Source of the DNA: Escherichia coli
Lineage (GTDB): Bacteria; Pseudomonadota; Gammaproteobacteria; Enterobacterales; Enterobacteriaceae
Assembly: GCF_030013595.1 (NCBI RefSeq)
Contig: NZ_CP122768.1
Reading direction: 5' to 3' (one strand)
Length of the DNA: 64,000 nucleotides
The translations under genes were made by a program, and so were the position numbers. The notes beneath the pieces were generated by a model that was not told the origin of the DNA, did not search any database, and worked only from the letters and a program-made list of their open reading frames with translations. Positions 36,927-59,954 of this stretch are shown here, piece after piece; within the stretch, counting starts at the first letter, position 1; each line of letters begins with the position of its first letter.

Positions 36927-36948
36927 TTTATGGTTTATTGACAATTGA

Positions 36949-37584: not shown

Positions 37585-37782
37585 TCAGTTCTGCATACAC
37601 TGCCGAACACCGTCGACAATTTCACAGACCTGAGAAGCTGTATCGAAAAGCTGGCGCGCCTTATCCAGGCTGACGCATCCCACCAGGAAAAAAGGCACCA
37701 GTATCGCTACCAGTGCCCATTTCGCCGCCGTTCGCGGCATTCTGTGTGTCCAGTGTTTTCGCTTCATCTCACTATCCACCAA
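37585..37782 (-). CDS. Putative small lipoprotein
   Basis: Signal peptide with lipobox FLVGC. Confidence 0.35.
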   Translation of the reverse strand: MVDSEMKRKHWTHRMPRTAAKWALVAILVPFFLVGCVSLDKARQLFDTASQVCEIVDGVRQCMQN

Positions 37783-38833: not shown

Positions 38834-39104
38834 GGATTTTTGATACGTTCCCGCGTGCTCGTATCACCAGCACGCAGAACACCAGGTTAATCAGGACGAC
38901 CAGCCAGTTACCGGGAGGAAAGCGACCACACAGATAACAAAGCGGCGCAAAGGCATAAAGCAGCATCAGCAGCCAGGCCAGCCACGACATCAGCGGTTTA
39001 TGTCTCGACTCACCACGACGATAAAAAAAGAGCGTCAGCACGATAACCGTGCTTAACACCACATTCAGTAATCCGGGAAGGTTACTTAACATTACCGCCT
39101 CCAC
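38814..39104 (-). CDS. Putative holin/antiholin-like membrane protein
   Basis: Three hydrophobic segments; between holin and lysozyme. Confidence 0.4.
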   Translation of the reverse strand: MEAVMLSNLPGLLNVVLSTVIVLTLFFYRRGESRHKPLMSWLAWLLMLLYAFAPLCYLCGRFPPGNWLVVLINLVFCVLVIRARGNVSKILVLRRR

Positions 39105-39471
39105 CCCGCAGACGGGAGAACAGCCCGGATACCAGCGATGCGATATCCTGCTGGTGGATGAATGAGAGAATCTTCACCGACACCACCGATACCAGTACCG
39201 CACAAAGCGCGTCGAGAGATGTGCTGTGGAGATTCAATTTTTCGACCAGCCAGGACGCAAGGACATCCGCCCCCAGCACGCCAACAATGAACGACACCAG
39301 AAAATGCGCCGCCACACGCCAGACAGAAATCACCTGTGGCATCGTGGCCACAAACAACGCCCCGGCAAACGCGCCAAACACAATCCCGAAATCCGTCCCG
39401 GTAAACAGCCCGAATACCGTCGCCCCGCCGAGCGCCACAGCAGTGCTGGAACCGGATAAGGGTTCAGACAT
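39082..39471 (-). CDS. Putative holin
   Basis: Gly/Ala-rich transmembrane helices; first gene of the lysis cassette. Confidence 0.5.
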   Translation of the reverse strand: MSEPLSGSSTAVALGGATVFGLFTGTDFGIVFGAFAGALFVATMPQVISVWRVAAHFLVSFIVGVLGADVLASWLVEKLNLHSTSLDALCAVLVSVVSVKILSFIHQQDIASLVSGLFSRLRGGGGNVK

Positions 39472-42181: not shown

Positions 42182-42702
42182 AGATCAATAAGCACTTCTC
42201 TGATAGGCTCATACCGCTTTTGCGCAAAGCAGATGGGCCTGAGGTTTGCTTGTGACCCTAACGCATGAGCAGATGGCTGGCAGGTGCCGCTAACACCCAC
42301 CAGCCGCCCATTACCACAAATGAAAAAACCTTCACTGCGGAAGGCGTCTGTAACAACCGAACTGATAATCTGCCAGACCCGCCATAACAAGCTGGGTCAG
42401 TATTAACTGACAGCGTTCGCGTGAAAGGTAAGTATTCTGCGCAATTTCCCCAACTGTTGCCGGTTCAGTGACGCTTAATTCATTAAACACCACTCTGGCT
42501 GTTTCGGTCATATCCTGCTGTTTTAGCATGTCTTTTTCTCTTTATTGGTTAACGTGACATACCAATAACTCTTGTCGAAAAAGCCAGCAAGCTGAAAGAC
42601 CGGTATTAATAACCACCTGCACATTTTATGTACCGAACCATTTTTCTGGCATAAAAAACCTCTCAATGGCGGGCGGTAAAAATCTTTGTTACTCAAGAAA
42701 TT

Positions 42703-43416
42703 TTAACGCACTCTGACTGTATTAATTTCAAAATCATTAATATTTCCGCTATTAAATATAACGAATTTCTTACCCCCACTCCTGTATGATTTCGATAACA
42801 CCAGACGATCATCATAACGCGCAATAATGTAATACCATACATTCTCATAGTGGATCGCCTGATATTCCCTCTTAAACTGTGGTTTGTACCAACCGGCAAT
42901 AAGAGAGAATGCCCAGAAATAAATCATAAACCCAGCCATCATGAACTCAATTCGGTGATGACGAATAAAAGACATTTCCGAAAAACATTTGACTGAAACA
43001 AGTCTTCTTCCAAACCTGACAAAAAGCGTGATTGTAAAGGCAGCAAGAATGCAGAAAATCAGTACATCTGGCTCAACATGCTGATGGATTACCGAAAACT
43101 CCAGAACAGGTGGAATAAAAAGCAGCAATATCGCGAGAAAAAGCCGGATAAAACTCAAATTTTGTATATTGCGCTTTTGTTTTATGCCCAAAAAGAAAAC
43201 AATACCAACTCCCCATCCAATAAGGAATATAACGATAACTGTCACAGCATAAAACAAACTTCGTGCTACATCATCGACACCAGCCCCGACAACCCACCAT
43301 GGAAAGCCATAGTAAAATGAAGTACCCCATCCATAGAAATAAGCGCTTCCCCATCCTAGACAGCCCATATAAGCAACAAAAAGTGAAGAGTTTCTGAGCA
43401 GAGCACTGTCATCCAT
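42703..43416 (-). CDS. Multi-pass membrane protein of unknown function (cargo downstream of Q)
   Basis: 237 aa, several hydrophobic helices rich in Trp/Tyr/Phe; AT-rich gene. Confidence 0.5.
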   Translation of the reverse strand: MDDSALLRNSSLFVAYMGCLGWGSAYFYGWGTSFYYGFPWWVVGAGVDDVARSLFYAVTVIVIFLIGWGVGIVFFLGIKQKRNIQNLSFIRLFLAILLLFIPPVLEFSVIHQHVEPDVLIFCILAAFTITLFVRFGRRLVSVKCFSEMSFIRHHRIEFMMAGFMIYFWAFSLIAGWYKPQFKREYQAIHYENVWYYIIARYDDRLVLSKSYRSGGKKFVIFNSGNINDFEINTVRVR

Positions 43417-43670
43417 AGTAACACCATTAACAACTCAAAAATATCAACACATATTACATAACAAATTGGATTCCATGCAGTCAAGGGGCGTCATTGATGG
43501 AGAAAGTATTGGCACAATCATCATCACGTTTAATGTCTATGCCATTTTTTTGGGGATAAAAAAACCCGCTCGGTCACGGGTTTTACTAGCTTTGCCATCA
43601 CGTATAAAAACGGCAAAATATCAGATTCACACGAAATATATGCCTTTTTATCTACTTTTGCAATACTTTG

Positions 43671-44342
43671 CTATGAAAATGCCGCCTTTTGTTTTGAACG
43701 TGTTCCCTCCACCAACAATAAAGCTTCACCATCCAGCCGATGAAAAATGTGTTTCATTGCAACCCAGTGACCAGTAAATGTCTTGGACCAGTTTTTGGTT
43801 GTTACTCCCACCAGTAACGCCAGTTCCTGGTATTCGTAACCTTCCCCACCAAAAAGCTCAGCTTTTACCGCCTGCGCCGCCAACCAGATCAACGTCTTCA
43901 GGCGCACCAGAGTTTTTCCTGCAATTTTTCTGGTACCGGATTGAGCATTAAATTCAGTCCACGCCCACTGCGTTATCGCGATCTGATGCTCCCAGCAAAT
44001 GCTACCGCTGTAACACCACAGCAGCCAGGCTTTATGATGTTCTTCAAGAGACAGAACGGCGCGTCGCCATGATGATGTCGAAAACTCAACCGGACTGACC
44101 AGGGCAATTGATGAACCTTTCACCAGCGATTGCTTTCCCGGGATCGGTGGATTATCCAGCGTTACTATTTTTCCAGTGACCTTATCGCGGTACCGGATTT
44201 TTTTACGTCTGTAACGCCCTGTATTGAACATGGCATTCTCCTGCCAGGCTTCAAGCTGACCTTTTGTTGCTCCACTCAAATCAGCGGTGGCGATCATGAG
44301 CTGCTCACGCACAAACTGTAAATACTGGTTATTCATGCGCAC
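43671..44342 (-). CDS. Putative late antiterminator Q-like protein
   Basis: Position between rusA and the lysis region; 223 aa; family assignment from memory only. Confidence 0.5.
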   Translation of the reverse strand: MRMNNQYLQFVREQLMIATADLSGATKGQLEAWQENAMFNTGRYRRKKIRYRDKVTGKIVTLDNPPIPGKQSLVKGSSIALVSPVEFSTSSWRRAVLSLEEHHKAWLLWCYSGSICWEHQIAITQWAWTEFNAQSGTRKIAGKTLVRLKTLIWLAAQAVKAELFGGEGYEYQELALLVGVTTKNWSKTFTGHWVAMKHIFHRLDGEALLLVEGTRSKQKAAFS

Positions 44343-44692
44343 TCCAGTTCTGTGATTTTTATCCCCAGCCGACCACCGGGAACAACCTGACCGCGCATAA
44401 TATTAACTTCATCAAACTGCTCATCGTCGATAAGCAGTCCCGCATGTGTCAGCGCATCCAGTGGTGCCTTCAGGATATTGTCCAGGTCGCGGCGGCGCTT
44501 ATCCGGTGGCTCTGCAATAATTTTTATTGCCAGCCTTCCGGACAGGTTTAATTTCAGTCGCTGCTGGCGAACAATAAGCGCCACATCACGGCGATAACGC
44601 TCACCGGCTTTTGATACAAAATATGTGCTGCCACGACGTCGCCAGTAGGTGTTCACCGTTGGCGGGTAAGGCAAAACAAATTCTATCCCCAT
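44333..44692 (-). CDS. rusA: Holliday junction resolvase RusA
   Basis: RRRDLDN...D motif and 119-aa size match RusA. Confidence 0.85.
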   Translation of the reverse strand: MGIEFVLPYPPTVNTYWRRRGSTYFVSKAGERYRRDVALIVRQQRLKLNLSGRLAIKIIAEPPDKRRRDLDNILKAPLDALTHAGLLIDDEQFDEVNIMRGQVVPGGRLGIKITELECA

Positions 44693-44704
44693 CAGTAACC
44701 TCTT

Positions 44705-45754
44705 TTATCCGAGTACGCCTGTTGCAAAGGCGTGATCAAGAAAACGAAAAATTAAATCAACCTGAGAACCATGTTTTTCTTCGAATGCCTGCGGATCCGC
44801 ATGAAGCTCGTTGTGATGCTCCCGACACAGCGGCAACGTAAAAATATCGTGGGCCTTTGTTCCCATCCCTCCCTGACCGTGACCAATCAGGTGATGGGGA
44901 TCGTCGGCTGGCTTACCACAACACGCACACGGCTGTGTCTTCACCCAGCGTGTGTATTTCTCATTTACCCAACGGCGACGTTTAGGTCGCTTCATGAAAG
45001 ATTCCGGAGACTCAGGATCAACGGCAATGCTGACCACCGTCTTTTCCTGTGGTGTGTTCTGTTGCTGGTGGACGTGAGGCAACGGCGCAAGATTTTTTGT
45101 GCGCTGCTTCAGTATGCTGGTGGCGGTCTGCTCTCCCGGTACGATGTCGCTTTCGCGGTAAACCGTGCGGATTTTTTCCGCACGTAATCCCAGAGAACGA
45201 CGTAATACTGCCTCCGGTAGCGCGTCCGCCACCTGATTGCAGACCGCCCACCAGGATAATTCAGCCAGCGATAATTCCCGTTCCTGTGCACCACTTATTG
45301 CGTGACGTATGACGTCAATCATCCAGGCTGTCAGATTTTGTTGAGCAAGCTGCCCGAGTGATTCGGATGTCTGGTCGCGCAGCTGGTTGTCGCAGTGCCA
45401 GCACAACAACATTGCGCCGGTACCGTAACGATGTATGACGGTTTCACTGTGGTGATAGTCTCCATGAGGCCACTGGCAGGATTTAACATGACGCAGGAGC
45501 CAGTCAGACAGTGCGCCAGCGCCGCCAGCAGCACGAATCACACGCTCATCGCTGAAAAACGGCAGCAATGTTTTATCTTCCGCCAGCGGCTGGCGAACGG
45601 CAGGAACGACTCCGGACGGCATACCGCGCATGTTTTTCGGTTCCGGCTCCACCAGCACCCTGCCGTTATGGAATACCTGCATGGATTCACGCCCCGGCTT
45701 AAGGACCACCAGCCCGAGTTCCGGTACCGGAACAGGTCGAAGTAATACCCGCAC
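44705..45754 (-). CDS. Phage nin-region protein with Cys/His-rich C-terminus (YdfU/DUF968-like)
   Basis: 349 aa; CACCGK...HHLIGHGQGG...CREHHNELH zinc-binding-like motif. Confidence 0.5.
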   Translation of the reverse strand: MRVLLRPVPVPELGLVVLKPGRESMQVFHNGRVLVEPEPKNMRGMPSGVVPAVRQPLAEDKTLLPFFSDERVIRAAGGAGALSDWLLRHVKSCQWPHGDYHHSETVIHRYGTGAMLLCWHCDNQLRDQTSESLGQLAQQNLTAWMIDVIRHAISGAQERELSLAELSWWAVCNQVADALPEAVLRRSLGLRAEKIRTVYRESDIVPGEQTATSILKQRTKNLAPLPHVHQQQNTPQEKTVVSIAVDPESPESFMKRPKRRRWVNEKYTRWVKTQPCACCGKPADDPHHLIGHGQGGMGTKAHDIFTLPLCREHHNELHADPQAFEEKHGSQVDLIFRFLDHAFATGVLG

Positions 45755-45755
45755 G

Positions 45756-46082
45756 TTACCTCCAGATGCGTTGCTGGAATGTGCGGGACGGACGCGGCGG
45801 GCGTTCGGAATAAGGGAGCCTGACGTAGATTATCCAGTGATGGTAGTCGAGGCTAAGGGCTTTCTTAAACTCATACCCACGTCTGCGGTAGTTATGAATC
45901 AGCCATTCGGCCTGTTCTTCAGTGCAGGGATCGTGCTGATACCAGTCATATTTGAATGTGTGAGAACACCGCCCTTGCCTGCTGGCAGGGGCGGTATCAG
46001 AATTGTGATGTTTGGTATTGTGCGCCATCGGTTTTCTCTGCTGGCGCAGCAGGTGCCAGTTGTTCAAGCTGGCGTGCGGCAA
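45756..46082 (-). CDS. Hypothetical phage protein
   Basis: 108-aa ORF directly upstream of the DUF968-like gene. Confidence 0.45.
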   Translation of the reverse strand: MPHASLNNWHLLRQQRKPMAHNTKHHNSDTAPASRQGRCSHTFKYDWYQHDPCTEEQAEWLIHNYRRRGYEFKKALSLDYHHWIIYVRLPYSERPPRPSRTFQQRIWR

Positions 46083-46163
46083 TATTGTCTCTGATTTCTG
46101 TTGTCGTCAACAGGCAACGTGCTATCATCGAATGGTGTTCTATCCTACTCCGTGAGGTTTACC

Positions 46164-46421
46164 ATGCGTACAACCCAACAATTCAGCATTACATTAACTA
46201 ACGAAATGGCTGACATGGTGCGCGCCCGTGTGGCTTCCGGTGCCTATGCTTCAGAAAGCGAGGTCATTCGTGAAGGGCTTCGCGCACTGAATGAGCGCGA
46301 TAAAGCAATCGAAGCGTGGTTAACGCATTCAGCCGCCCCCTCTCTTGATTCTATCCGCGAAACCCCAAACAACGGACGCTCCATTTCACAGGTTCGCGCC
46401 GCGATTCGATCCGGGAAGTAA
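46164..46421 (+). CDS. parD: ParD-family antitoxin (ribbon-helix-helix)
   Basis: GTGAGGT ribosome-binding site; ITLTNEMADMVRARVASGAYASESEVIREGLRAL is a typical ParD/CopG fold; paired with downstream toxin. Confidence 0.75.
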   Translation: MRTTQQFSITLTNEMADMVRARVASGAYASESEVIREGLRALNERDKAIEAWLTHSAAPSLDSIRETPNNGRSISQVRAAIRSGK

Positions 46422-46426
46422 TCTGC

Positions 46427-46726
46427 ATGACATATGAAGTCATCATTACTCCTGAGGCCGAACAACAAATAATCAACCTGCACAGGTATATAACGGAGAA
46501 AGCAGGGAACGTCATTGCTGACAATTATGCCAATGCGCTTCTTGATTATCTTGATGGGTTTTCTACATTCCCGCATCGGGGCAATAAACGCGATGATATT
46601 CGCCAGGGGATGCGGGTAACTCATTTCCGCCACAGAACGATTATTGCTTTTGCCGTTGATAGCAGAAAAGTCTTTATTGTCGGTATCTATCATGGTGGGC
46701 AAAGTTATGAAACCGATTTCTTATAA
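46427..46726 (+). CDS. parE: ParE/RelE-family toxin
   Basis: 99 aa, 5 bp downstream of the antitoxin; RelE/ParE-like motifs. Confidence 0.75.
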   Translation: MTYEVIITPEAEQQIINLHRYITEKAGNVIADNYANALLDYLDGFSTFPHRGNKRDDIRQGMRVTHFRHRTIIAFAVDSRKVFIVGIYHGGQSYETDFL

Positions 46727-46930
46727 ACTTTTACCCACATCATTCCGGTGTTAGAATTAACCGTCCGCCCCCTCTCTTACTGGCGGATTCGTAGGCTATA
46801 TAAATCAAAGATCCCGGCTCATGTTTGTGTCGGGATCTTTTTTCGGCGATTTATCCCCAGCGGCAAATCGAATACACCACCAGCGCCACCGCCATCGCAA
46901 TTCCTACCGTTGTGAATGCTTCAGGCCAGG

Positions 46931-47275
46931 TCATCGTAAAATATCCTCCACGCTTATCAGTCCGTTCCGCTCCAGATAACTCATCGCCTTATCCGGTAAT
47001 TTGCAGTCTGGCTTCGCTTTCCTCAGTTGCCAGGTTAACTGCTTTACCAGCATGGTTAACTCATCGACCAGACGCTGATATCCCACTGGTTTGTATTCAT
47101 GCAATTTACCGGCTGGCTCTGCTGCCAGCGATACCAGTGCGATTTCCAGAACAGCAATATCCATCTTATATGTGCGGATGATGTCATGGTCGATTGTGCC
47201 CGGTATGCACAGTCTCTGTGCTTCAATAGTCTCCTCTGCGTGAGCTATTAACTGCTCTCTGGTAAAAGTCGTCAT
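46931..47275 (-). CDS. Hypothetical phage protein
   Basis: 114-aa ORF overlapping the HNH gene stop. Confidence 0.4.
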
Positions 47276-47637
47276 GCCGTAGCCCCTTCTTGATATTTTT
47301 CAAACCAGAACACAACTGGGTCAGATTTCATTTCAACCAATCCCATACGAACCAGCGCTTTGCCTTTCCCGGACGCAAGGAATTCACGACGACCATCACT
47401 GATAATTCGCCGATAATCTTCCAGACTACTGCAATGCTTGTGCAGATTGCATGGGTGGCATGCCGGAACCATGTTGGATATATCGTCACGTTCCTGGTGA
47501 AGCATATTTCCATCAAAACGAATGACCGGTTTTACATGGTCTGCATGCCACTTTTCGCCAAGTTCGCAGCCGCAATAAGCACAGCGACCGCCGAACTTCA
47601 TGCGCAGCTCTGCACGTTGTTTTTTCGTCAGTGCCAT
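47272..47637 (-). CDS. HNH endonuclease
   Basis: CAYCGC...HADHVKP...CHPCN motif. Confidence 0.75.
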
Positions 47638-48566
47638 ATCAGCTTTCCTTATACGGATTAATTTTATTGTGCAGTGTGTTGAACGACGCCCACACCACGT
47701 CGTTATACAATTCAATAACTGGCTCAATTATTTTCACGATAAACCAGACCAGTAATAGCGGGGATATCGGTATCATCAACACGATAAATATAATGAGAAA
47801 CAAAAATTCTGTCGCTCTACTTTTTCTCGGATATTCTTTTCTGAATAATGTAGTCATTTCTTACCGCCCTTTCGGGCGGCCTCCTGACATTAATCATTGT
47901 GATAACTCATAGTTTCATTTGCAGCATCAACTGGATCAACATCCCACCAGCAATAATTTTGGTCGAGTCCTTCAGGTGTCCACGGCTCTAATTCATTTTT
48001 TACCGCATTCTCGTCACCAGTAATTTTAAAAATCTGCTCAGAAAATTTCCTCACCCACTCGTTATATTTTTCCGCATTAATGGTTTTCTGTGTATTTAAC
48101 ATAGATATGCCTCCAGTTAAGGATTTGATTTTATTTACAGTGCTAAATTTAATTATTCAGTTCTGGATTTTGTCGCCCTGCGTATCCGCGCTTTCGCGTT
48201 ACGCTCAATCTGAATTAACTTTTCTATATTTTTCCGTCTTTCCTGTTCCTCCTGGCGCAATAGCCTTACATCATCTGCCAGTCTGGTTTCTCTTTTCGCC
48301 ACAGAGAGCATCCAGTCAAACGGCTCCACAACTGCACCGCAGATTTTACAGCGGACCTGACGCTCTTTTTCGTCAACCCGAACAGAGGCGTGATGACAAT
48401 ATGCTCTTTCCGATGGCTCATAAAGAAAATTAACCTGATTACGTGGGTCATCCTCTTTTACCGGAAATAAAACGATATTGCTTAACTCATCTTCTGGTTT
48501 TATTTCCATGCTCTTCTCCTTTGATGTGAATGCCAGCGGTAATTGAAGCCTGATAGCTAATTTCAT

Positions 48567-48989
48567 TCACAGTATCGCCTCCTGAAATTTACCCTGATAG
48601 AAAGCCAGTACACGCTGCATAGCTGCGCTCTTCCGGCACTCGCTACAGATTATGTTCTGACGCCTGTCGTAGCGGCGTATTTCTCCGTCTGGTAATGACC
48701 AGATAAGGTCCGGATCAACCACAGATGTTTTCTTCAGATTTGCCCTTGAGAGTTTTTTGCGGGCATTTTGCCAGTCCTTACGCGCCTGCGCTGACGGGAA
48801 TAACCCGTAACCAGAGTTGTATACATCGCCGCTGGCAACCAGCTCTCTTGCGAGAACGCTCATCAGATATCTTGTTGCCCCAGTTTTAGCTTCCAGTTGT
48901 CGTAACGTCTCTCGCCCGCTCTGGCGTACGAGATCAACAATCTGCCCTTTAATTTTTTCCCGCTCTTCCTGTGTAAATACTTTTGCCAT
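48567..48989 (-). CDS. Hypothetical phage protein
   Basis: Start at MAKVF with AGGGGAGGG ribosome-binding site. Confidence 0.45.
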   Translation of the reverse strand: MAKVFTQEEREKIKGQIVDLVRQSGRETLRQLEAKTGATRYLMSVLARELVASGDVYNSGYGLFPSAQARKDWQNARKKLSRANLKKTSVVDPDLIWSLPDGEIRRYDRRQNIICSECRKSAAMQRVLAFYQGKFQEAIL

Positions 48990-49005
48990 AAGCCCTCCCC
49001 TGGAA

Positions 49006-49731
49006 TCACTTTTCCGACACAATACGACTGGAGGAATCAACAATCTGTCGGACAATATCCCGGTGCTTGTTCAGCTCCCGCAGCGCGGCGCAGACTCGCT
49101 CCCACTTCTGGACATGACTTTTCGCCCGGCGCAGTTCGCGGTTTGCCATATGCAGCGATGGTAAAATCAGGCCATTCGCTCGCGTTTCAGTGAACGATGG
49201 CAGTGACTGCACAAGGTCCGCCACAGTTTCTGTTTTAATTTCCTCCTGTGTTGCCGCTTCCTGTACTGGTAACGCAACACCGGCTGGCTGAGGAAAGGCT
49301 TTACCAGATGTTTTCGCTACCGATACAACTTTCGGCTCTGCTGGTAAATTACCGTCCGGCAGGCAGTAACGAAATTTACCGTTCTGATTTACGCGAATCA
49401 GACGACCTTTGCTGATGGCCATAGCCAGCGATGAGTTCACCCTGCGGGAAGTAATTCTGAATATCAGTGCAAGTTCATCAGCCGCTTTAGGGCCATGCTG
49501 TTCAATCGCCTCGATCAGCATTTGCGCTGTCACTTTAGAAGCCTGTGCCACAGATGCGTTTTCGTCGGTTTGAGTCAACCACCACATCGGGCCCTTGTTA
49601 TCAGCTTCCCCGCGACGCTTCAGTTTCCACAGCTCGTTAATCGCCTCATCCCGGGTCATTCCCAGACGTGCTGCCACTTCCTGGGAAGAGGCTTTTCCCA
49701 TTGCTTTCAGTGCGTCAAAAACGGTCTCCAT
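49006..49731 (-). CDS. Hypothetical phage protein
   Basis: Start at METVF with GGAGGAAA ribosome-binding site. Confidence 0.45.
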   Translation of the reverse strand: METVFDALKAMGKASSQEVAARLGMTRDEAINELWKLKRRGEADNKGPMWWLTQTDENASVAQASKVTAQMLIEAIEQHGPKAADELALIFRITSRRVNSSLAMAISKGRLIRVNQNGKFRYCLPDGNLPAEPKVVSVAKTSGKAFPQPAGVALPVQEAATQEEIKTETVADLVQSLPSFTETRANGLILPSLHMANRELRRAKSHVQKWERVCAALRELNKHRDIVRQIVDSSSRIVSEK

Positions 49732-49765
49732 TAAAATTTCCTCCCGGTAAAAATTACTTCTCAAC

Positions 49766-50227
49766 TCAAACAAAACCAGCCGCTTTCCGGCGTTCATATT
49801 CCTGTTTCAGCAACTCAATTGGCGTTGGTCCCGACGGGTGTTTGGGTGCCGCCAGTTGTCGCCGGACTGGCGGAATGCTCAGGCCATTACCAACATGCTT
49901 TGCCCATTTCGTCAGTTGCCATTCTGCAAGCCGTTTTAACTCCCCTTCGGTCATCTGGCGCTCAATCCCCTTTGAACGCATCTCGAGGCAAATGTGATAC
50001 AGCACAGGCTGAGACCACGGGTACTTATCACTTCCGTCGTATCGCCAGGACTCATTGCGCCAGCGGCGGTACTCCTCCATCACAGCATCCACCGTCAGAC
50101 CAAATGGATTGGCTCCGCTTTCCGAAATCAGCGCCACAAACTCAGCCAGGTCCGGAGGCCATGTTTCACCCGCCCGGCAGCGGTCCATGCACTGGCGGCA
50201 GACCTGCCGGATTTGCTGCTCAGTCAT
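49766..50227 (-). CDS. Replication protein, lambda P-like (helicase loader C-terminal region)
   Basis: DKYPWSQPVLYHICLEMRS...TEGELKRLA parallels lambda P (ESYPWKSNAHYWLVTNLYQ...TDAELRRKA); start set just after the initiator stop. Confidence 0.6.
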   Translation of the reverse strand: MTEQQIRQVCRQCMDRCRAGETWPPDLAEFVALISESGANPFGLTVDAVMEEYRRWRNESWRYDGSDKYPWSQPVLYHICLEMRSKGIERQMTEGELKRLAEWQLTKWAKHVGNGLSIPPVRRQLAAPKHPSGPTPIELLKQEYERRKAAGFV

Positions 50228-51245
50228 CGCGCCAATCTGTGCAATCCAGAGCTTCGAAGGTGCGGCCCCGTTCTTCTGGGTCCAGCGGTTCGAATAAACC
50301 TCCCCCATGAGTTCCCACAGCTTCCAGGCCGTTTCCGTCGCTGATAAATCCGTTTTCACGTTCCCACTGCTCACGTGCTGCCCGAATTTCCTGAACTGCT
50401 CGTGATGCGGTGCCACCTGGTGCTGCTGCATGGTTTACCCCCTTGCTGACTGGTTTAACCTGCGCCCTGACGTGATTTACGTGACGGGCGAATTTCTGCT
50501 CCCACTGAATCTGCGTGAACACTTTCCCCTCCGCTGCCCAGTAGTCCCGGAAGGCTGCAAATTCAGCTGGTGTAAATTCCGGCTCAGGCAGAGCCACTCC
50601 CCACAGAGCAGCCCGTCGTCGAAAATCCGGCGACGGATGCCAGCCATCGGTCATCGGAAATTTCCCGATGGGTTCGCTCATGCCGTCCAGATATTCGGGC
50701 TCCGGTGTCTGCGATGGCGTACCGTTCGACTCACTGGTCGTAGCTCTCTCGCGCACGCGCGCGTTATGTGTGGGGTTTAATTCTTTATCTGTATCTTTAT
50801 CTGTCGTGACTCGTCGTGACATGTCGTGACATATGCGTGACTCGTCGTGACACCCCTCATTCTGTTTTCGTAATTTTTCCCTCTCGCGCTGCGCTCTCTT
50901 GCGCTCTGCCGGGGATTTCGCGGTTTGTGAAACGTTGCCATTGTCCTCTTTCAGTACCTGGCGTTTTTCCCATCCAGTGATTAAATCACCATCAAGTACC
51001 CGCCCCTGCATCGTCTGCAAAATTGAATCAATTACCTCTTCTGTCACGTCGAGCGCACTTGCCAAATCTTCTGTCGTGACATCAATGTGACCTCGCGTGA
51101 CATTTCGTGACGCGCTCACCAGGAGGTGGATATACACTGCCATCACTGTTGCAATTGGCTGCCCTGACACCCTGGCAATTGTTCGCCACTTAGGGTCATT
51201 TGGCATGTCATGCCATAATCTGAGCCAAGCGTTAGCCATACTCAC
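50220..51245 (-). CDS. Replication initiator (YdaU/O-like) containing the origin iterons
   Basis: 341 aa; two clusters of TCGTGAC iterons inside the coding sequence, as in lambda O/ori. Confidence 0.6.
   Translation of the reverse strand: MSMANAWLRLWHDMPNDPKWRTIARVSGQPIATVMAVYIHLLVSASRNVTRGHIDVTTEDLASALDVTEEVIDSILQTMQGRVLDGDLITGWEKRQVLKEDNGNVSQTAKSPAERKRAQREREKLRKQNEGCHDESRICHDMSRRVTTDKDTDKELNPTHNARVRERATTSESNGTPSQTPEPEYLDGMSEPIGKFPMTDGWHPSPDFRRRAALWGVALPEPEFTPAEFAAFRDYWAAEGKVFTQIQWEQKFARHVNHVRAQVKPVSKGVNHAAAPGGTASRAVQEIRAAREQWERENGFISDGNGLEAVGTHGGGLFEPLDPEERGRTFEALDCTDWRDD
50801..51112. repeat. Origin-like iterons: two clusters (about 50801-50853 and 51072-51112) of GTCGTGAC-type repeats at roughly 10-bp spacing
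   Basis: Five and four copies respectively, flanking an AT-rich tract. Confidence 0.6.
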
Positions 51246-51310
51246 CTCTTCTGATACCGAATCTTTTTACTCACGAGTTGCCGGAAGTGATTCGATATGG
51301 CTATTGTCAG

Positions 51311-51736
51311 TCAATGTACTGCCACAGCATTTCCTGCCGGGCCACCACGGTTCATCTGATTGAAACCGGCGATTGCCACTGCGACAAAATCATCAGCGTC
51401 TCTCACCAGTCGCTCCCGCGTCTCCACCAGCTCCCGAAAATAAGCTGAACTGTGGCTGCGCATTCTGGCCACCAGCAAAGGTGGCATTGCCTTTTCGATC
51501 GCTGGTAACAACGTCTGAATTTTTTCAACTGCATCAGGGGTGTCTTTCTCTACCCAGCGGAAAATTTTCTGGGTATTGCGAGCCAGGGCTTCCGGATGGC
51601 TATCGTCATACAGTTCAGGAAACGTCATACCCAACTCAAAATAAGCCTGGGTTATTCCAGCTGCTGGAACTTTTTCGCCATCAGGACGCGCCCAGGCATT
51701 CATCGCCATGCGGATGTGTTCATGCTTGATTTTCAT
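51311..51736 (-). CDS. ydaT: YdaT-like protein (Rac prophage family)
   Basis: Begins MKIKHEHI as I recall E. coli YdaT; 141 aa. Confidence 0.55.
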   Translation of the reverse strand: MKIKHEHIRMAMNAWARPDGEKVPAAGITQAYFELGMTFPELYDDSHPEALARNTQKIFRWVEKDTPDAVEKIQTLLPAIEKAMPPLLVARMRSHSSAYFRELVETRERLVRDADDFVAVAIAGFNQMNRGGPAGNAVAVH

Positions 51737-51758
51737 GAATCATTTGCCTCTTGATGTT

Positions 51759-52055
51759 TCAGGTATGATCAAATGAGGATTTGTTACTGTCATTTAGTTG
51801 CTTCACTGACATATTCTGCGAACAACATGCCGAACGTCGTAAATATGACCAGTCAATATCAGGACGAAGTTCTTCGCACAGAACCTCACCTCTTGTTGCA
51901 CGTTCAATTGCTGGACATCTCTCGGCAGGCAATTGACGTACCCCTTTGATCCATTGATTTACGCTTGGAGGTGATACACCTAAAAGCCTAGCCATTGCTG
52001 ATTGCCCACCGACAACAGCACAAGCTTGCTTGAATGAATAGTTCTCTTTTTTCAT
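51759..52055 (-). CDS. ydaS: Cro-like HTH protein, YdaS-like
   Basis: MKKENYSFKQACAVVGGQSAMARLLGVSPPSVNQW matches my memory of Rac YdaS; divergent from the repressor. Confidence 0.6.
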   Translation of the reverse strand: MKKENYSFKQACAVVGGQSAMARLLGVSPPSVNQWIKGVRQLPAERCPAIERATRGEVLCEELRPDIDWSYLRRSACCSQNMSVKQLNDSNKSSFDHT

Positions 52056-52084
52056 CGAATGAACTCCAAAAACACACAGAAATA

Positions 52085-52151
52085 TTAGGCGACGCCTAAC
52101 ACAAATGTCAATAGGCTGTGCCTAATGCGATAAAGGTAGGAATTGCCTAAT
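52085..52151. promoter_or_regulatory. Operator region: three TTAGGC-n3-GCCTAA-type palindromes between the divergent ydaS-like and repressor genes
   Basis: TTAGGCGACGCCTAA (perfect), ATAGGCTGTGCCTAAT, TAGGAATTGCCTAAT. Confidence 0.6.
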
Positions 52152-52178
52152 ACAATGAGCATAGGAGAATATTAAGCA

Positions 52179-52655
52179 ATGCTTAGTGGTAAAGACTTAG
52201 GCCGAGCGATAGAGCAGGCCATTAACAAAAAAATCGCATCGGGATCCGTCAAATCAAAGGCGGAGGTCGCACGCCACTTCAAAGTCCAACCACCATCAAT
52301 TTATGACTGGATTAAGAAAGGCTCTATAAGTAAAGATAAACTTCCAGAATTATGGCGTTTCTTTTCTGATGTTGTTGGTCCAGAGCATTGGGGGCTTAAC
52401 GAATACCCCATACCAACCCCCACCAATTCAGATACAAAAAGTGAACTTTTAGATATAAACAACCTTTATCAAGCAGCCTCTGATGAAATAAGAGCGATTG
52501 TAGCTTTCCTGTTATCTGGAAATGCTACAGAACCAGATTGGGTTGACCACGATGTTCGCGCCTACATAGCAGCGATGGAAATGAAAGTGGGTAAGTATCT
52601 GAAAGCTCTAGAATCTGAACGGAAAAGCCAGAACATCACAAAAACTGGAACTTAA
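52179..52655 (+). CDS. Prophage repressor (XRE-type HTH, RacR-like position)
   Basis: 158 aa; N-terminal helix-turn-helix; flanked on both sides by the same palindromic operator motif. Confidence 0.6.
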   Translation: MLSGKDLGRAIEQAINKKIASGSVKSKAEVARHFKVQPPSIYDWIKKGSISKDKLPELWRFFSDVVGPEHWGLNEYPIPTPTNSDTKSELLDINNLYQAASDEIRAIVAFLLSGNATEPDWVDHDVRAYIAAMEMKVGKYLKALESERKSQNITKTGT

Positions 52656-52970
52656 ACTTATATGGTCTGACGGAAAACTCCTGGATTCCGTTATTTAACC
52701 CCCCATCACTTTCTGCTGTCGCCATCACCTATTAGGTTACGATCAAAACATTAGGCATAGCCTATTGACAATCAATTAGGCATTACCTATAGTTCCAGCA
52801 TACCACCCACCCCGCCCCACAGAACGCAGGGCAATACTTCGAGTTACCAGGCAGTGGTCAGGGGTTAAGTAGCCAGCCCGAGGCGTAAGAACATGACGGC
52901 AGGGTTCAACTTTAACTATGCAGCAGGTTTTTGTTCCGCCACCCCGGCGTTAAGGGGAAATGAGGTCAGC

Positions 52971-53126
52971 ATGGATACTATCGATCTTGGCAACAGCGAA
53001 TCTCTGGTATGTGGCGTGTTCCCCAACCAGGACGGCACGTTCACTGCGATGACGTATACCAAAAGCAAAACGTTTAAAACCGAATCTGGCGCGCGTCGCT
53101 GGCTGGAAAGAAACTCAGGTGAGTGA
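52971..53126 (+). CDS. Small Rac-type protein (YdaF-like)
   Basis: MDTIDLGNSESLV... 51 aa with AAGGGGAAATGAGG ribosome-binding site; assignment from memory. Confidence 0.4.
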   Translation: MDTIDLGNSESLVCGVFPNQDGTFTAMTYTKSKTFKTESGARRWLERNSGE

Positions 53127-55109
53127 TATGGATTTCGACACAATCATGGAAAAGGCTTACGAAGAATACTTCGAAGGCCTTGCCGAAGGCGAAGAAGCTC
53201 TCAGCTTCAGTGAGTTTAAACAGGCGCTTTCCAGCTCGGCAAAATCTAACGGCTGATAAGCGAAGCAGCACCGCGAGGAATCAGTATGCAGAAACGAGAA
53301 CCCGTCATCATCGCGCCAGACTATACCGATGATGAACTTTATGAGTGGATGCGCCAGAAAATTAATGCAGCGCAGGATCTGAAATGGGCCAATGAAGCCA
53401 GGGCTAAGCAGGCTGAAAATCTGTCCGCTCTGGAGCAGGATATCACCAGGCTGGAAAAAGCAGCGGCATTAAGCATTGCCAGAATGATTTCATACCCGCG
53501 TTAATAGCTAACCAACGAAGCTAAGGTTGGTAATTAAGGAGTTCTCCACGGGTCAGGTGGAGTGCGTGCGCCGGACACGGGTGAGCATCCGGTACGTTCT
53601 TTAAAAATCTGGATAGTCCCAACTTATTTAAACGGTTAATTATCTTGAGTTCATCCAGAACTTATTATTGCAAGCGAGGCAAAAAGTACGAAAATGAGCA
53701 TCAAAGCGCATTATTTCCATTGGCTGAAGTACAGATATTACCTTTTTTCCAAAACATTGTGGGCAAAGATACACAGTTATCTCAGTATCGCCTATAAATT
53801 GCTTCTTGGAATATACAAGGGTTCCAGAATCAAGCTTGTTAAGCTTGTAACCTTCCGCCTGTCGCTGAAAATCTTCTGTCTCTGCAATTTTTGCTTTGAG
53901 ATGCATTATCTCTTCATCACGAAAGCGGATCGCATCGCAAAGAGAGAAGCATTCCGCCTGAAGCGTGATTAGTTTGTTCTGAAGTTCAATAGTTGCGGCT
54001 TTAACTTCTGCATCCGTTTTTGCGTCATTAATAACCTTAGCGAGACCAGCTGTCTCCTTTATCGCAGCCATAGCCGCTGACAGTTCTGCTATCACGTTGA
54101 GTACTCTTCTCGTTGTTGGGGATATCCGGATTATACAAATTTCTTGTTGTTGGGGAATAACAGGAACCACCTCGCCTGACGTGGTTAAAAGCAGGCACAC
54201 AACGCGAAAGCGTACGGCGAGGTAGCTGGTTCATAGATAGCCTGTCGTTAAATTTTCGTCGACCGTGCACTTCCGGTTGTGGCAATCCGCGAAATGGCGC
54301 GGCGGTAAGTATGGCTGGGTTATCCTTACCCCATTAGTGGCACCGGGTTGTCAGGTTGACCATACGCTTAAGTGACAACCCCGCTGCAACAACCCATGTT
54401 GATTACCTTTTGGCGGGTATCCGTTTTTTGTTTTCCCTTGTGATACCCGCCCTTTTTAAAGTGAATTTTGTGATGCGGTGAATGCGGCTCAGCGCACGCG
54501 GAACAGTTAAAAAGGCCAGTTGACTTCCGTATTGGTTCTTATGGGTGGGTTCTCTGTATCCGGCGTTAATTATTAACTGGTTAACGTCACCTGGAGGCAC
54601 CAGGCACCGCATCACAAAATTCATTGTTGAGGATGCGATAATGGAAACGTTATTACCAAACGTCAATACGTCTGAAGGTTGTTTTGAAATTGGTGTCAGA
54701 ATCAGTAACCCTGTATTTACTGAAGATGCCATTAATAAGAGAAAACACGAACGGGAGCTATTAAATCAAATATGCATTGTTTCAATGCTGGCCCGTTTAC
54801 GCCTGATGCAAAAAGGACGATGACAATGAATACAGTATTTGCACTCGTTCTGACGGTTTTTCTTAATACAGGCGAGCCAGTCGATCTTGTTATTGGTATA
54901 CATGACTCAATGAAAGAATGCATGGCTGCCGCAGCGGAACAGAAAATTCCCGGCAACTGTTATCCGGTTGATAAAGTTATTCGCATGGACAATAACGAAA
55001 TCCCGGCAGGACTTAAAACAGCACCGTAATTAATATCCGGTTTCATTTTTATATGCCAGCAATGGCAGGGATTTGTTCACCCTTAAATCTGTAATGAGGT
55101 TAAAACAAA

Positions 55110-57581
55110 ATGAGTAAAGTCTTTATTTGCGCCGCCATTCCGGACGAACAGGCAATAAAGGAAGAAGGTGCAGTCGCTGTAGCCACTGCCATTGAAGCCG
55201 GCGACGAACGCCGCGCCCGAGCCAAATTTACCTGGCAATTCCTGGAGCAATATCCGGCTGCTCAGGACTGCGCTTATAAATTTCTTGTTTGCGAGGATAA
55301 ACCCGGCATGCCCCGCCCTGCCATCGACTCCTGGGATACCGAATATATGCAGGAAAACTGCTGGGATGAGGAATCCGCTTCCTTTATTCCGGTCGAACCA
55401 GAATCCGATCCGATGAACGTCAATTTTGACAAGCTGTCCCCTGAAGTACAGAACGCGGTCCTGGTTAAGTTCGACACATGTGAAAACATCACCGTTGATA
55501 TGGTTATTAGCGCACAGGAATTGTTGCAGGAAGACATGGCAACATTCGACGGACATATCGTTGAAGCGTTGATGAAAATGCCAGAAGTTAACGCCATGTA
55601 TCCGGAGCTTAAGTTGCACGCCATTGGGTGGGTTAAGCATAAATGTATTCCTGGTGCTAAATGGCCCGAAATTCAGGCAGAGATGCGCATCTGGAAAAAA
55701 CGTCGCGAAGGTGAACGCAAGGAAACCGGAAAATACACGTCTGTTGTTGATCTCGCCCGCGCCAGAGCCAATCAACAGTACACTGACAATTCAACAGGAA
55801 AAATCAGCCCGGTCATTGCTGCCACTCATCGCGAATACAAGCAGACATGGAAAACACTGGATGACGAACTGGCCTACGCTCTCTGGCCTGGTGATGTGGA
55901 TGCCGGAAACATTGACGGCAGCATCCATCGCTGGGCAAAAAATGAAGTTATCGACAACGACCGCGAAGACTGGAAGCGTATCTCGGCATCAATGCGCAAA
56001 CAGCCTGATGCCCTTCGCTACGACCGCCAGACTATTTTTGGCCTTGTCCGTGAACGTCCGATCGACATTCACAAAGACCCTGTGGCACTGAACAAATACA
56101 TTACTGAATACCTGACTACAAAGGGCGTGTTTGAAGATGAAGGAAGAAATCAGAGCGCAACTGATACTCTCTCGTCGCCAGTACCAGAAACTGATGCAGT
56201 GGAAACGGCAATTCCGGACAACGAAAAAACCGAATGCAAAGTGGAAGTCGAACCATCTGTAGAGCGTGAGGGGCCGTTCTACTTCCTCTTCACCGACAAG
56301 GATGGCGAAAAATATGGTCGCGCAAACAAACTTTCTGGTCTGAATAAGGCGCTGACTGCAGGGGCTACTGAAATCACGAAAGAAGAATATTTTGCCCGTA
56401 AAAACGGTACATACTCAGGTTCACAACAAAATACTGGTGCATCTGACACGACCGCACAACCAGAGCCGGTAAAAGTTACCGCTGACGAAGTAAACAAAAT
56501 TATGCAGGCAGCCAATATCAGCCAGCCTGACGCCGATAAGTTGCTTGCTGTATCACGTGGTGAATTTGTTGCAGGGATTAGCGACCCGAATGATCCGAAA
56601 TGGGTGAAGGGGATTGAAACCCGCGATTCAGTGAATCAGAACCAGCAAGAAACGGAACAGAACGACCAGAAAGCGGAACAAAACAGCCCAAATGCGTTAC
56701 AAAACGAGCCAGAAACGAAACAACCTGAGCCAGTAGCGCAACAGGAAGCGGAAAAAGTCTGCACCGCCTGCGGTCAGACCGGCGGCGGCAACTGCCCTGA
56801 TTGTGGTGCGGTGATGGGCGACGCAACATACCAGGAAACATTCGATGACAAGAACCAGGTTGAAGTTCAGGAAGACGATTCGGAGAAAATGGAAGGCGCT
56901 GAACATCCACACAAAGAGAATGCTGGCAGCGCTCAGGATCACGCCAGCGATAGTGAAACTGGCGAGACGGCAGATCCCTTAATTACGGTGAACGGTCATC
57001 ACGTTATCACATCCACCAGCAGGACGTGTGACCATCTAATGATCGACCTTGAAACCATGGGAAAAAATCCTGATGCCCCGATTATCTCAATAGGTGCAAT
57101 ATTTTTCGATCCGCAAACCGGAGATATGGGACCGGAATTTAGTAAGACTATCGATCTGGAAACTGCTGGCGGAGTCATTGATCGGGACACCATTAAATGG
57201 TGGCTTAAGCAATCACGCGAAGCGCAATCTGCCATTATGACCGATGAAATCCCGTTAGATGATGCACTGTTACAATTGCGGGAATTTATCGACGAAAACT
57301 CCGGTGAATTTTTTGTTCAGGTCTGGGGAAATGGAGCCAACTTCGACAACACGATTTTGCGCCGTTCATACGAACGGCAGGGGATCCCCTGCCCGTGGCG
57401 TTACTACAACGATCGCGATGTACGCACAATCGTTGAGCTGGGGAAAGCCATAGACTTCGATGCCAGAACGGCTATTCCATTCGAAGGTGAGCGCCATAAT
57501 GCACTTGATGACGCCCGTTACCAGGCAAAATACGTTTCAGCAATCTGGCAAAAACTGATCCCGAATCCGGTTGATTTTTAA
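55110..57581 (+). CDS. Large exonuclease, RecE-like middle region with C-terminal DEDD-type 3'-5' exonuclease-like motifs
   Basis: 823 aa; segment DKLLAVSRGEFVAGISDPNDPKWVKGIETRDSVNQNQ resembles RecE as I remember it; C-terminus has DLET, NGANFD and HNALDDA motifs. Confidence 0.55.
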   Translation: MSKVFICAAIPDEQAIKEEGAVAVATAIEAGDERRARAKFTWQFLEQYPAAQDCAYKFLVCEDKPGMPRPAIDSWDTEYMQENCWDEESASFIPVEPESDPMNVNFDKLSPEVQNAVLVKFDTCENITVDMVISAQELLQEDMATFDGHIVEALMKMPEVNAMYPELKLHAIGWVKHKCIPGAKWPEIQAEMRIWKKRREGERKETGKYTSVVDLARARANQQYTDNSTGKISPVIAATHREYKQTWKTLDDELAYALWPGDVDAGNIDGSIHRWAKNEVIDNDREDWKRISASMRKQPDALRYDRQTIFGLVRERPIDIHKDPVALNKYITEYLTTKGVFEDEGRNQSATDTLSSPVPETDAVETAIPDNEKTECKVEVEPSVEREGPFYFLFTDKDGEKYGRANKLSGLNKALTAGATEITKEEYFARKNGTYSGSQQNTGASDTTAQPEPVKVTADEVNKIMQAANISQPDADKLLAVSRGEFVAGISDPNDPKWVKGIETRDSVNQNQQETEQNDQKAEQNSPNALQNEPETKQPEPVAQQEAEKVCTACGQTGGGNCPDCGAVMGDATYQETFDDKNQVEVQEDDSEKMEGAEHPHKENAGSAQDHASDSETGETADPLITVNGHHVITSTSRTCDHLMIDLETMGKNPDAPIISIGAIFFDPQTGDMGPEFSKTIDLETAGGVIDRDTIKWWLKQSREAQSAIMTDEIPLDDALLQLREFIDENSGEFFVQVWGNGANFDNTILRRSYERQGIPCPWRYYNDRDVRTIVELGKAIDFDARTAIPFEGERHNALDDARYQAKYVSAIWQKLIPNPVDF

Positions 57582-57647
57582 TGTTCAACCCTGATCGCCG
57601 TCCCCGAATTATATTGGCGGCGGTCATGCTGTAAGGCACGTGACCAC

Positions 57648-57899
57648 ATGTACGAATTAACTCTATCGCCAGCAGAGATTCAAGAGATCACGAAATACGA
57701 GCGATACACAAAACAGCAACACCAGTTAAGGCTGCACGGTATCCCATTTGTAATCGGTCCTAAAAACGAACCAATAGTTCTTCGCAGGGATATTCCACAC
57801 GGACTGACTACGATGCCAAAAGCACCTGAACTGGTTTCCGCTGAACCCGATTTTGAGGCGCTGAACAATGGGAAGACCAAGAAAAAACAAAAAAGATAA
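57648..57899 (+). CDS. xis: Excisionase-like protein
   Basis: 83-aa basic protein immediately upstream of and overlapping int. Confidence 0.55.
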   Translation: MYELTLSPAEIQEITKYERYTKQQHQLRLHGIPFVIGPKNEPIVLRRDIPHGLTTMPKAPELVSAEPDFEALNNGKTKKKQKR

Positions 57900-58887
57900 T
57901 GCACTACCACCGCGTGTTAGATCGAATGGTTACAGTTACGTATGGAAACCCGAAGGAAGCACAAGAACTATAGGGCTCGGAAGAGTGCGGGAAACCAGCG
58001 TAGCTAAAGTCTGGCAAAATTATGAGCTGGAAAAAGCAAAACTCCACAACATAATGACAGTAGCTAAATTATGGCACATGTTTATGGACTCCCCTGCATT
58101 TACAGAACTGGCCCCCCGAACCCAAAAAGATTATCGGCAACATCAAAGGGCATTGTTGGCAGTATTCGGAAAAGTGCTTGCTGATAATGTAAAAATTGAA
58201 CAGGTAAGAATTTTCATGGATAAGCGAGGACTTGAGAGCAAGACCCAAGCAAACCATGAACTGGCAAGTCTGAGCCGTGTATACGGATGGGGATATGAGC
58301 GTGGGTATGTGAAAAATAATCCATGCAAAGGAGTCAGAAAATTCACACTTAAAGCCCGTACTGTTTACATCACCGATGAACAGTATGCTGCAATATATGC
58401 GGAAGCAATTCCACAGTTACGTATTGCAATGGAGATATCCTATCTTTGTGCGGCAAGGCTCGGTGATGTACTCGAGCTGAAATGGCAGGATATTATGGAG
58501 AAAGGGATTTACATTGAGCAAAACAAGACCGGCACTAAACAAATCAAGGAATGGTCTCCGCGATTACGTACGGCGATCCAGTTAGCCCGAAATGTATCTT
58601 CCGGCACATGCGAGTATGTGATCAACACAACCAAAGGCGGGAAGGTAATAGCCAAGACGCTGAACAACTGGTGGAATCAGGCTAAACGTGCAGCCGAGCA
58701 AAAAGCCGGCGTTCCGTTTGGGTGCAACTTCCATGACATAAAAGCCAAAGGGATTTCAGATTACGAAGGCAGCAGTCGCGACAAACAAATTTTCAGTGGA
58801 CACAAAACAGAAAATCAGGTGTTGATTTACGATCGTAAAACCAAAATAACACCAACACTGGATTTGCCGCTTGTGGTCAGTAAGTAG
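57868..58887 (+). CDS. int: Tyrosine integrase (lambdoid)
   Basis: 339 aa with ARLGD and H..K...Y-type C-terminal catalytic region; adjacent to the tRNA att fragment. Confidence 0.8.
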   Translation: MGRPRKNKKDNALPPRVRSNGYSYVWKPEGSTRTIGLGRVRETSVAKVWQNYELEKAKLHNIMTVAKLWHMFMDSPAFTELAPRTQKDYRQHQRALLAVFGKVLADNVKIEQVRIFMDKRGLESKTQANHELASLSRVYGWGYERGYVKNNPCKGVRKFTLKARTVYITDEQYAAIYAEAIPQLRIAMEISYLCAARLGDVLELKWQDIMEKGIYIEQNKTGTKQIKEWSPRLRTAIQLARNVSSGTCEYVINTTKGGKVIAKTLNNWWNQAKRAAEQKAGVPFGCNFHDIKAKGISDYEGSSRDKQIFSGHKTENQVLIYDRKTKITPTLDLPLVVSK

Positions 58888-59028
58888 GCAATACAGAAAA
58901 TTTTCTGGCAAAAAGACTTGGTATATTAACTCTGAATAACTCCCTAATATATTGATTTTTCTTGGTGTCAAGTCTGATTAACTTTTCGGATATTTTCCGT
59001 ATTATACTGATTTTTCTTTATTTTTCTT

Positions 59029-59088
59029 CGGTCTTGAAAACCGGCGACCCGAAAGGGTTCCAGAGTTCGAATCTCTGCGCTTCCGCCA
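59029..59088 (+). tRNA. 3' fragment (about 60 nt) of tRNA-Ser(UGA), serT-like; prophage att remnant, not an intact tRNA
   Basis: Anticodon stem-loop CCGGT-CTTGAAA-ACCGG (anticodon TGA), variable arm, T-arm CAGAG-TTCGAAT-CTCTG, acceptor 3' strand and CCA; the 5' half is replaced by phage sequence. Confidence 0.75.
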
Positions 59089-59294
59089 AATAAGATAAGG
59101 GGTTAGCTAAATGCTACCCCCTTTTTCTTTTGCCTGTCGAAATTCTCAGGGCGTTATATTTGCTTAATGACCTGATAATCCGCTGTTAAACCTGTTCCAG
59201 ATCAAATGCGTAAAGATGGGTAAAACTTCTGGGTGCCCTTACGCATTATCATTATGCTGCTTAATTAATTACATCTGTCATAGAGAGTGACTCA

Positions 59295-59954
59295 ATGGAT
59301 CGTATTGTTAGTTCTTCACATGACCGTACATCGCTGCTTAGCACCCATAAGGTGCTGCGTAATACCTATTTTCTGCTGAGCCTGACGCTGGCCTTTTCTG
59401 CGATTACCGCAACTGCCAGTACGGTGCTGATGCTGCCATCTCCGGGTCTGATTCTGACGCTGGTGGGTATGTATGGTTTGATGTTCCTGACCTATAAAAC
59501 GGCGAATAAGCCGACCGGGATTATCTCCGCATTCGCCTTTACCGGTTTTCTGGGTTATATCCTCGGACCAATTCTGAATACCTATCTGTCTGCCGGAATG
59601 GGTGACGTAATCGCTATGGCACTGGGCGGAACGGCGTTAGTGTTCTTCTGCTGCTCTGCATATGTGCTGACCACCCGCAAAGATATGTCGTTCCTCGGCG
59701 GTATGCTGATGGCGGGTATTGTGGTGGTGCTGATTGGTATGGTTGCTAATATCTTCCTGCAACTGCCTGCTCTGCATCTGGCGATCAGCGCGGTCTTCAT
59801 TCTGATCTCCTCTGGCGCTATTTTGTTTGAAACCAGCAACATCATTCATGGCGGTGAAACGAACTATATTCGTGCCACGGTTAGCCTGTATGTTTCGCTG
59901 TACAACATCTTCGTCAGCCTGCTGAGCATTCTGGGCTTCGCCAGCCGCGATTAA
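59295..59954 (+). CDS. yccA: FtsH modulator YccA (BAX-inhibitor family membrane protein)
   Basis: 219-aa polytopic membrane protein matching E. coli YccA; next to serT as in E. coli. Confidence 0.9.

Follow-up and report, generated by a model that had tools for sequence, protein, structure and literature searches.

The 3′ fragments of tRNA genes are textbook att scars, and the sites of integration within these genes have reportedly been classified by Williams into sublocations, with the anticodon loop forming one of the classes. The tDNA islands collected by Islander carry a restored tDNA and a displaced 3′ fragment, with anticodon-centred 'A' sites in 2,083 of 3,919 (PMC4383910). In Escherichia coli, serT has been listed as a prophage integration site in STEC O121:H19 (PMC8767318) and in CC119 STEC, with tandem occupancy (PMC10132054), while 'yccA' has been given as the integration site of Stx2k phages (PMC8065619). 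A close relative of the prophage described here is the temperate phage Evi, a coliphage from infant faeces (PMC10910852). As Evi was isolated as a coliphage, its att module belongs to a viable phage.

Here we describe the boundary of a lambdoid prophage next to yccA in a 64,000-nucleotide stretch of E. coli DNA (referred to as the window). Positions 59029-59093 are assigned as the core of attR, that is, the right junction of the prophage in the anticodon-loop region of serT, and we put the probability of this assignment at about 95%. The feature is real, goes beyond chance and represents an ordinary attR scar at a site that is already known.

Identity and extent of the serT fragment

In E. coli K-12 MG1655 the serT gene (b0971, annotated as tRNA-Ser(UGA)) is 88 nt long and lies between hyaA and yccA; the initial annotation had given serT as a neighbour of yccA in E. 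coli, and this is what the K-12 annotation contains. The letters of the window at 59029-59088 (+), CGGTCTTGAAAACCGGCGACCCGAAAGGGTTCCAGAGTTCGAATCTCTGCGCTTCCGCCA, are 100% identical to nt 29-88 of K-12 serT. This displaced 3′ fragment starts at the second base of the 5′ arm of the anticodon stem, of which it retains 4 nt, and continues through the anticodon loop, the long variable arm and the T arm to the 3′ strand of the acceptor stem and the terminal CCA. The initial annotation, made from the letters alone, had described the 3′ 60 nt or so of a tRNA-Ser(UGA), from the anticodon loop through CCA, and proved exact in its coordinates. The 60-mer occurs once in the 64-kb window and gave 0 matches in 100 shuffles. 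The 5′ 28 nt of serT had no match anywhere in the window with up to 3 mismatches allowed.

An intact tRNA at this position, which the initial annotation had named as speaking against its reading, was predicted neither by ARAGORN, which called no tRNA at 59029-59088 when run over the window, nor by Rfam, which had no match at the fragment at the gathering score. A permissive Rfam search of 58850-59300 returned noise only, the best tRNA-clan match being to tRNA-Sec with 13.6 bits and E=8.7. As a positive control, ARAGORN called tRNA-Ser(tga) at the K-12 site (attB) and at the attL of a prophage in NZ_CM149870.1, and none in the attP of Evi. Elsewhere in the window ARAGORN called a tRNA-Leu(cag) at 20123-20212 (-), which was considered as an alternative integration target and rejected; it lies antisense within an open reading frame, is without an Rfam match and is almost certainly a false positive. 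That reading frame (19836-20417 (+)) encodes a P2 gpV baseplate spike with the Pfam domains Phage_base_V, Phage_spike and Apex.

Comparison of the four att sites

Four sequences were compared, all anchored on the 60-mer: the junction in the window, the hyaA-side junction in NZ_CM149870.1 (E. coli HCP5S3_I2), the int-proximal region of Evi (LR597642.1) and K-12. The identity with attP runs 5 nt (AATAA) beyond CCA, such that the duplicated block is 65 bp long (59029..59093 (+)) and consists of the 3′ part of serT plus AATAA. To the left of the block the window is about 95% identical to the Evi attP over 150 nt and has no resemblance to what precedes serT nt 29 in K-12. To the right, 139 of 140 nt are identical to K-12, and the window does not match Evi. 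The attL in NZ_CM149870.1 is the mirror image: its left side is the K-12 flank followed by serT nt 1-28, and its right side matches Evi. The serT restored at this attL is identical to K-12 serT, and the terminator hairpin behind it (-20.1 kcal/mol) comes from the phage and is homologous to the native hairpin, though diverged from it. Evi represents the uninterrupted attP and K-12 the empty attB; the layout of attP is int, a 141-bp AT-rich arm, the 65-bp serT copy, the phage terminator hairpin and a second arm with three cTTGGTATA repeats. The 65-bp block is therefore common to attR, attL, attP and attB, which bears out the att duplication proposed in the initial annotation.

The locus shows the following features of the Islander signature, to which the near-identical prophage of NZ_CM149870.1 adds a restored intact tDNA at the other end. 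The displaced 3′ fragment lies between DNA of the element on the left and the native chromosome on the right, a tyrosine integrase is encoded inside the element 141 bp from the fragment, and the duplicated 65-bp block is shared by an empty attB (K-12) and the attP of a free phage (Evi). The onset of identity at tRNA nt 29, in the anticodon stem, and its close 5 nt past CCA fit the anticodon-loop sublocation. The fragment thus gives a base-precise right boundary of the prophage, with phage DNA up to 59028 and the shared block up to 59093.

Evi carries the same 65 bp beside its int, so a phage copy of the fragment does exist, and the fragment in the window could have been a tRNA pseudogene or a remnant of cargo carried along by the phage, and not a chromosomal leftover of integration. 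This is highly improbable and is refuted by the comparison of the flanks, as the native serT terminator and yccA are found directly 3′ of the block, in the stretch that is nearly identical to K-12, and the phage arm (TCAAGGGGTTACC...) seen in Evi and at attL is not found 3′ of 59093 in the window. Because there is chromosomal DNA on one side, the copy in the window is the junction copy, as the assignment to attR holds.

Neither an intact serT nor a second copy of the fragment is present in the window, and the intact serT of this genome must therefore lie beyond its left edge, as the initial annotation had predicted, a placement that is well supported by the comparison with the NZ_CM149870.1 prophage, where the intact gene is at the far, tail-fibre end and adjoins hyaA.

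The chromosomal side of the junction

The block is followed by the native serT terminator (59094..59135 (+)), a hairpin with a U-run that is identical to K-12 except for one A>C change and has a predicted folding energy of -17.3 kcal/mol (z=-3.4). The change, at 59117, places a one-base bulge in the terminator stem. A simple terminator scan 3′ of the fragment found nothing, since the A>C change bulges the stem; folding shows the bulged hairpin. The first chromosomal gene past the prophage is yccA (59295..59954 (+)), identified from the open reading frames and from the K-12 and RefSeq annotations. It is followed by tusE, yccX, rlmI, hspQ, yccU and yccT, which is the K-12 order read in reverse.

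Integrase, excisionase and the attP arm

The gene closest to the junction on the phage side is int (57868..58887 (+)), which encodes a 339-residue tyrosine integrase of the lambda Int type. The protein scores 34.3 bits against PF00589 (cutoff 27.1), matches the integrase families phrog_1 and phrog_7244, and aligns over its full length with the lambda Int structures 1z1b and 1z1g (phmmer, E=2e-17). Its residues 1-45 (MGRRR..LPPNLYIRNNGYYCYRDP..GLGRDR) align with residues 1-50 of lambda Int, the N-terminal arm-binding region. The catalytic residues R (in ARLGD), H (FHD), H (GHK) and Y (LIYDR) align with those of lambda Int. At the position of the second catalytic arginine, Arg311 of lambda Int, there is a lysine instead (Int residues 290-297, FHDIKAKG, encoded at 58735-58758). 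The lysine and the surrounding motif FHD[IL]KAKGISD are kept in all six aligned members, namely the Int of the window and those of Evi, ST64B, Chris1, mEp390 and BUCT708. Being conserved across the subfamily, the substitution is no argument for inactivity, and the variant is presumably active since the element is demonstrably mobile.

The start of int is overlapped by xis (57648..57899 (+)), which encodes an 83-residue excisionase of the DUF4224 type (PF13986; phrog_1266, E=6.5e-23). Upstream of xis and int lies a gene for an 823-residue 3′-5′ exonuclease (55110..57581 (+); PF16473), and the order exonuclease-xis-int, which is also found in Evi, ST64B and Chris1, is typical of this group of prophages.

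Between int and the fragment there are 141 bp of phage-derived DNA (58888..59028 (+)), the int-proximal arm of attP, which is about 95% identical to the Evi attP. Its GC content is 27.7%, compared with 44% for int and 58% for the fragment, and the statement in the initial annotation that the 5′ half of the tRNA gene had been replaced by AT-rich phage DNA adjoining int was thus correct. The arm contains the sequence ACTTGGTATA (58916..58925 (+)), a candidate arm-type Int-binding repeat from a family that has four copies in the Evi attP; there the repeat, cTTGGTATA, is found once in the int-proximal arm and three times in the far arm. The int-proximal arm has one more, degenerate copy at 58960-58969 (+) (TCTTGGTGTC; TCTTGGTGT as a copy of cTTGGTATA). 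The repeats lie on both arms of attP and are candidate arm-type binding sites for Int.

Proposed mechanism of integration

We propose that the lambda-type integrase recombines the phage attP with the chromosomal serT, and that Int would work via its arm-binding N-domain and the DUF4224 excisionase, presumably together with host bending proteins. Strand exchange would most likely occur in the 7-bp anticodon loop CTTGAAA (59033..59039 (+), with TGA at 59035-59037), the putative overlap region at the int-proximal edge of the block, between the inverted stem halves CGGT and ACCG. The loop is favoured because the block starts just 4 nt before it and because, for the gene to be rebuilt, the phage has to bring no more of the tRNA than the part that lies 3′ of the crossover. 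The tRNA fragments of all eight related phages end at the same place in the anticodon stem. As attP and attB are identical across the 65 bp, sequence alone cannot place the crossover, and the loop is the most likely of the positions within the block.

At the far junction the 5′ 28 nt of the bacterial serT would be joined to the phage-borne 3′ part and its terminator, and serT would stay intact because the phage copy restores the 3′ part there. At the near junction the bacterial 3′ 60 nt and the native terminator would be left between int and yccA as a non-functional scar. Such an att scar explains the unannotated tRNA-like piece beside yccA and guards against its being miscounted as a tRNA-Ser pseudogene.

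The lambdoid prophage and a nested P2-like prophage

The best-matching reference is the 45-kb uninterrupted lambdoid prophage of E. coli HCP5S3_I2 (NZ_CM149870.1, 3267245-3312520), in which the RefSeq annotation includes gpJ, Lom, tape measure, capsid, portal, terminase, lysis, Q, RusA, replication P, exo, xis and int. The lambda-like gene order is seen in this 99.87%-identical reference, while the window itself holds only the part from int through lysis and the edge of nu1. The right-hand 22 kb of the prophage (36907..59028, identified by BLAST) comprise lysis, Q, RusA, ParDE, replication, the racR/ydaS immunity region, dicB, exo, xis and int. Positions 36907-61506 of the window align with 23402-48001 of the reference locus (L004) in a single alignment of 24,600 bp at 99.87% identity and with no net length difference. 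For this lambdoid part, collinearity with NZ_CM149870.1 also predicts a gene for a DNA methyltransferase and a toxin-antitoxin pair, ParD/ParE (approximately 41096-42181 and 46164-46726, with coordinates obtained by offset), in addition to racR/ydaS/ydaT and dicB.

The lambdoid sequence continues at the other end of the window, where positions 1..883, containing the nu1/DNA-packaging gene and the cos-side spacer, are 98.9% identical to 22539-23421 of L004; the two pieces of the window found by BLAST overlap by 20 bp in L004. The gap between them (884..36906) is filled by a P2-like prophage of approximately 36 kb that lies outside the serT att site and is flanked by a 20-bp direct repeat. The 20-mer, AAAAAGGCCGCAGAGCGGCC, is present at 864-883 and 36907-36926. 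It is also the ihfA-terminator junction of a related P2-like prophage in O26:H11 11368, and is unoccupied in the lambdoid prophage of NZ_CM149870.1. The genes of the P2-like prophage include those for an integrase (1811-2938 (-)), a replication endonuclease, P2-family capsid, portal, terminase, sheath, tube, tape measure and gpD, and there is an hxs-type radical-SAM cassette at approximately 32397-35522 (-). A P2-like phage has thus integrated into a look-alike of its attB, in the stretch of the lambdoid prophage that separates the lysis genes from cos/nu1. The nested junction of the two elements was found in 0 of 5,426 complete E. coli genomes, and no record covered 80% or more of window positions 22000-46000.

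Tandem prophages at serT have been reported in CC119 STEC (PMC10132054), and a non-nested arrangement was also considered, with the lambdoid prophage ending at about 36907 and the P2-like element adjoining it in tandem at serT. It is the least probable of the alternatives and is refuted by the sequence. There is no serT sequence at 864-883, at 36907-36926 or elsewhere in the window apart from the attR fragment, the P2-like element is bounded by another 20-mer, an att core of the ihfA-terminator type, and window positions 1-883 resume the lambdoid sequence exactly where 36907 left off.

With the P2-like element nested, the absence of the far att site from the window is accounted for. If the window were collinear with the reference, an intact serT would be predicted near position 13,660, where it is absent; the insertion of the 36-kb P2-like prophage into the lambdoid element has moved the far site out of the window. 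The lambdoid element should accordingly be about 81 kb long here, with its serT-bearing left end about 22.3 kb to the left of window position 1. Enlarged by the nested element, this lambdoid copy is probably not packageable, and the serT junction may have become a fixed scar that no longer works as attR.

Occurrence in E. coli genomes

Of 5,426 complete E. coli genomes, 742 contain the 2.36-kb stretch from xis and int through the serT fragment to yccA as one contiguous piece and 4,662 have an empty, uninterrupted hyaA-serT-yccA site, so that occupied and empty sites together cover all but about 20 of the genomes. In 5,413 of the 5,426, serT is intact and has kept its native flank on the upstream side. 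The 241-bp query behind this last count had been meant for attL junctions and, because the phage-borne terminator resembles the native one, it also aligned with empty sites; the count is thus of intact hyaA-side serT only.

These data also bear on whether a deletion or an illegitimate rearrangement truncated serT where the end of the prophage had degraded, in which case the other end would lack the intact counterpart. The nested P2-like element disrupts the prophage, which shows that the region has been remodelled, and the other end is outside the window. The breakpoint is nevertheless the same, base for base, in 742 other genomes and at the attP boundary of the free phage, an intact serT is kept beside hyaA in nearly all of the genomes, and the visible 22 kb of the prophage have no net length difference relative to the intact 45-kb prophage. 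Such a truncation therefore has very little chance of being the explanation. To our knowledge, serT is the only gene for tRNA-Ser(UGA) in K-12.

The attR scar has no wider significance, serT being a listed prophage site of E. coli that is occupied in approximately 14% (about one in seven) of the complete genomes. The nested P2-like prophage, the inverted attP described below and the Lys-for-Arg motif are of mild use for prophage bookkeeping and answer no open question.

Comparison with known systems

The free phage Evi (LR597642.1) has an Int that is 99.4% identical in amino acid sequence, the same exo-xis-int order, an int-proximal arm with 95% identity and an identical 65-bp serT block. It differs in being a free 40-kb phage genome with its own terminator and far arm after the block, and outside these regions it is a mosaic when compared with the prophage in the window. 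The prophage in NZ_CM149870.1 is 100% identical across the xis-int-serT fragment-yccA stretch and 99.87% identical over 24.6 kb; it is 45 kb long and uninterrupted, whereas the copy in the window has the 36-kb P2-like insert in the 20-bp ihfA-terminator-like site.

In a tblastn search of phage genomes, Evi (99.4%) was followed by a subfamily of integrases with 42-60% identity, from Chris1, 606R7, BUCT708, KpF5, ST64B, ZF40, mEp390 and Fostie. The ST64B/CP-933U-type integrases use serU. These eight relatives share the xis-int-attP order, and beside int each has the 3′ fragment of a tRNA with its boundary 3-4 nt into the anticodon stem. They differ in the orientation of the fragment, which is sense in the window and Evi, whereas in the relatives it runs antisense to int and has its CCA end closest to that gene. 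In 606R7 there is an intact tRNA-Ser(CGA) beside int, and the 'Stenotrophomonas' phage BUCT708 has an E. coli-like fragment of the serT type in the antisense arrangement.

The attP module is thus inverted relative to xis-int in the lineage of the window and Evi compared with the eight relatives. With the antisense fragment of the relatives int comes to lie beside the restored tRNA, and with the sense fragment of the window and Evi it comes to lie beside the displaced fragment, such that the inversion flips the chromosomal orientation of the prophage. A further consequence is that a sense-strand 3′ half of a tRNA and a terminator invariably lie behind int, in the free phage as well as in the prophage. 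The int gene of lambda is subject to sib retroregulation, and the tRNA-like 3′ tail might be a fixed counterpart of this, an element for processing or stability of the int transcript, but this is pure speculation and very unlikely to be right. The inverted attP is a curiosity of module shuffling.

The similarities to the Int/Xis/attP system of lambda are a heterobivalent Int homologous over its full length, a small xis overlapping the start of int, an attP adjoining int and predicted arm repeats on both arms (here 1-2 on one and 3 on the other). The differences are the attB, which is intergenic between gal and bio in lambda and a tRNA anticodon loop here, the residue at position 311, which is Arg in lambda and Lys here, and the excisionase, which here is of the DUF4224 type. 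The att identity is 15 bp in lambda and 65 bp here, the block being longer because it must rebuild a tRNA gene. The tDNA islands of the Islander type, finally, are alike in having the 3′ fragment downstream and in the same orientation, and a tyrosine integrase inside the element, and the attR described here shows no difference in kind from them.
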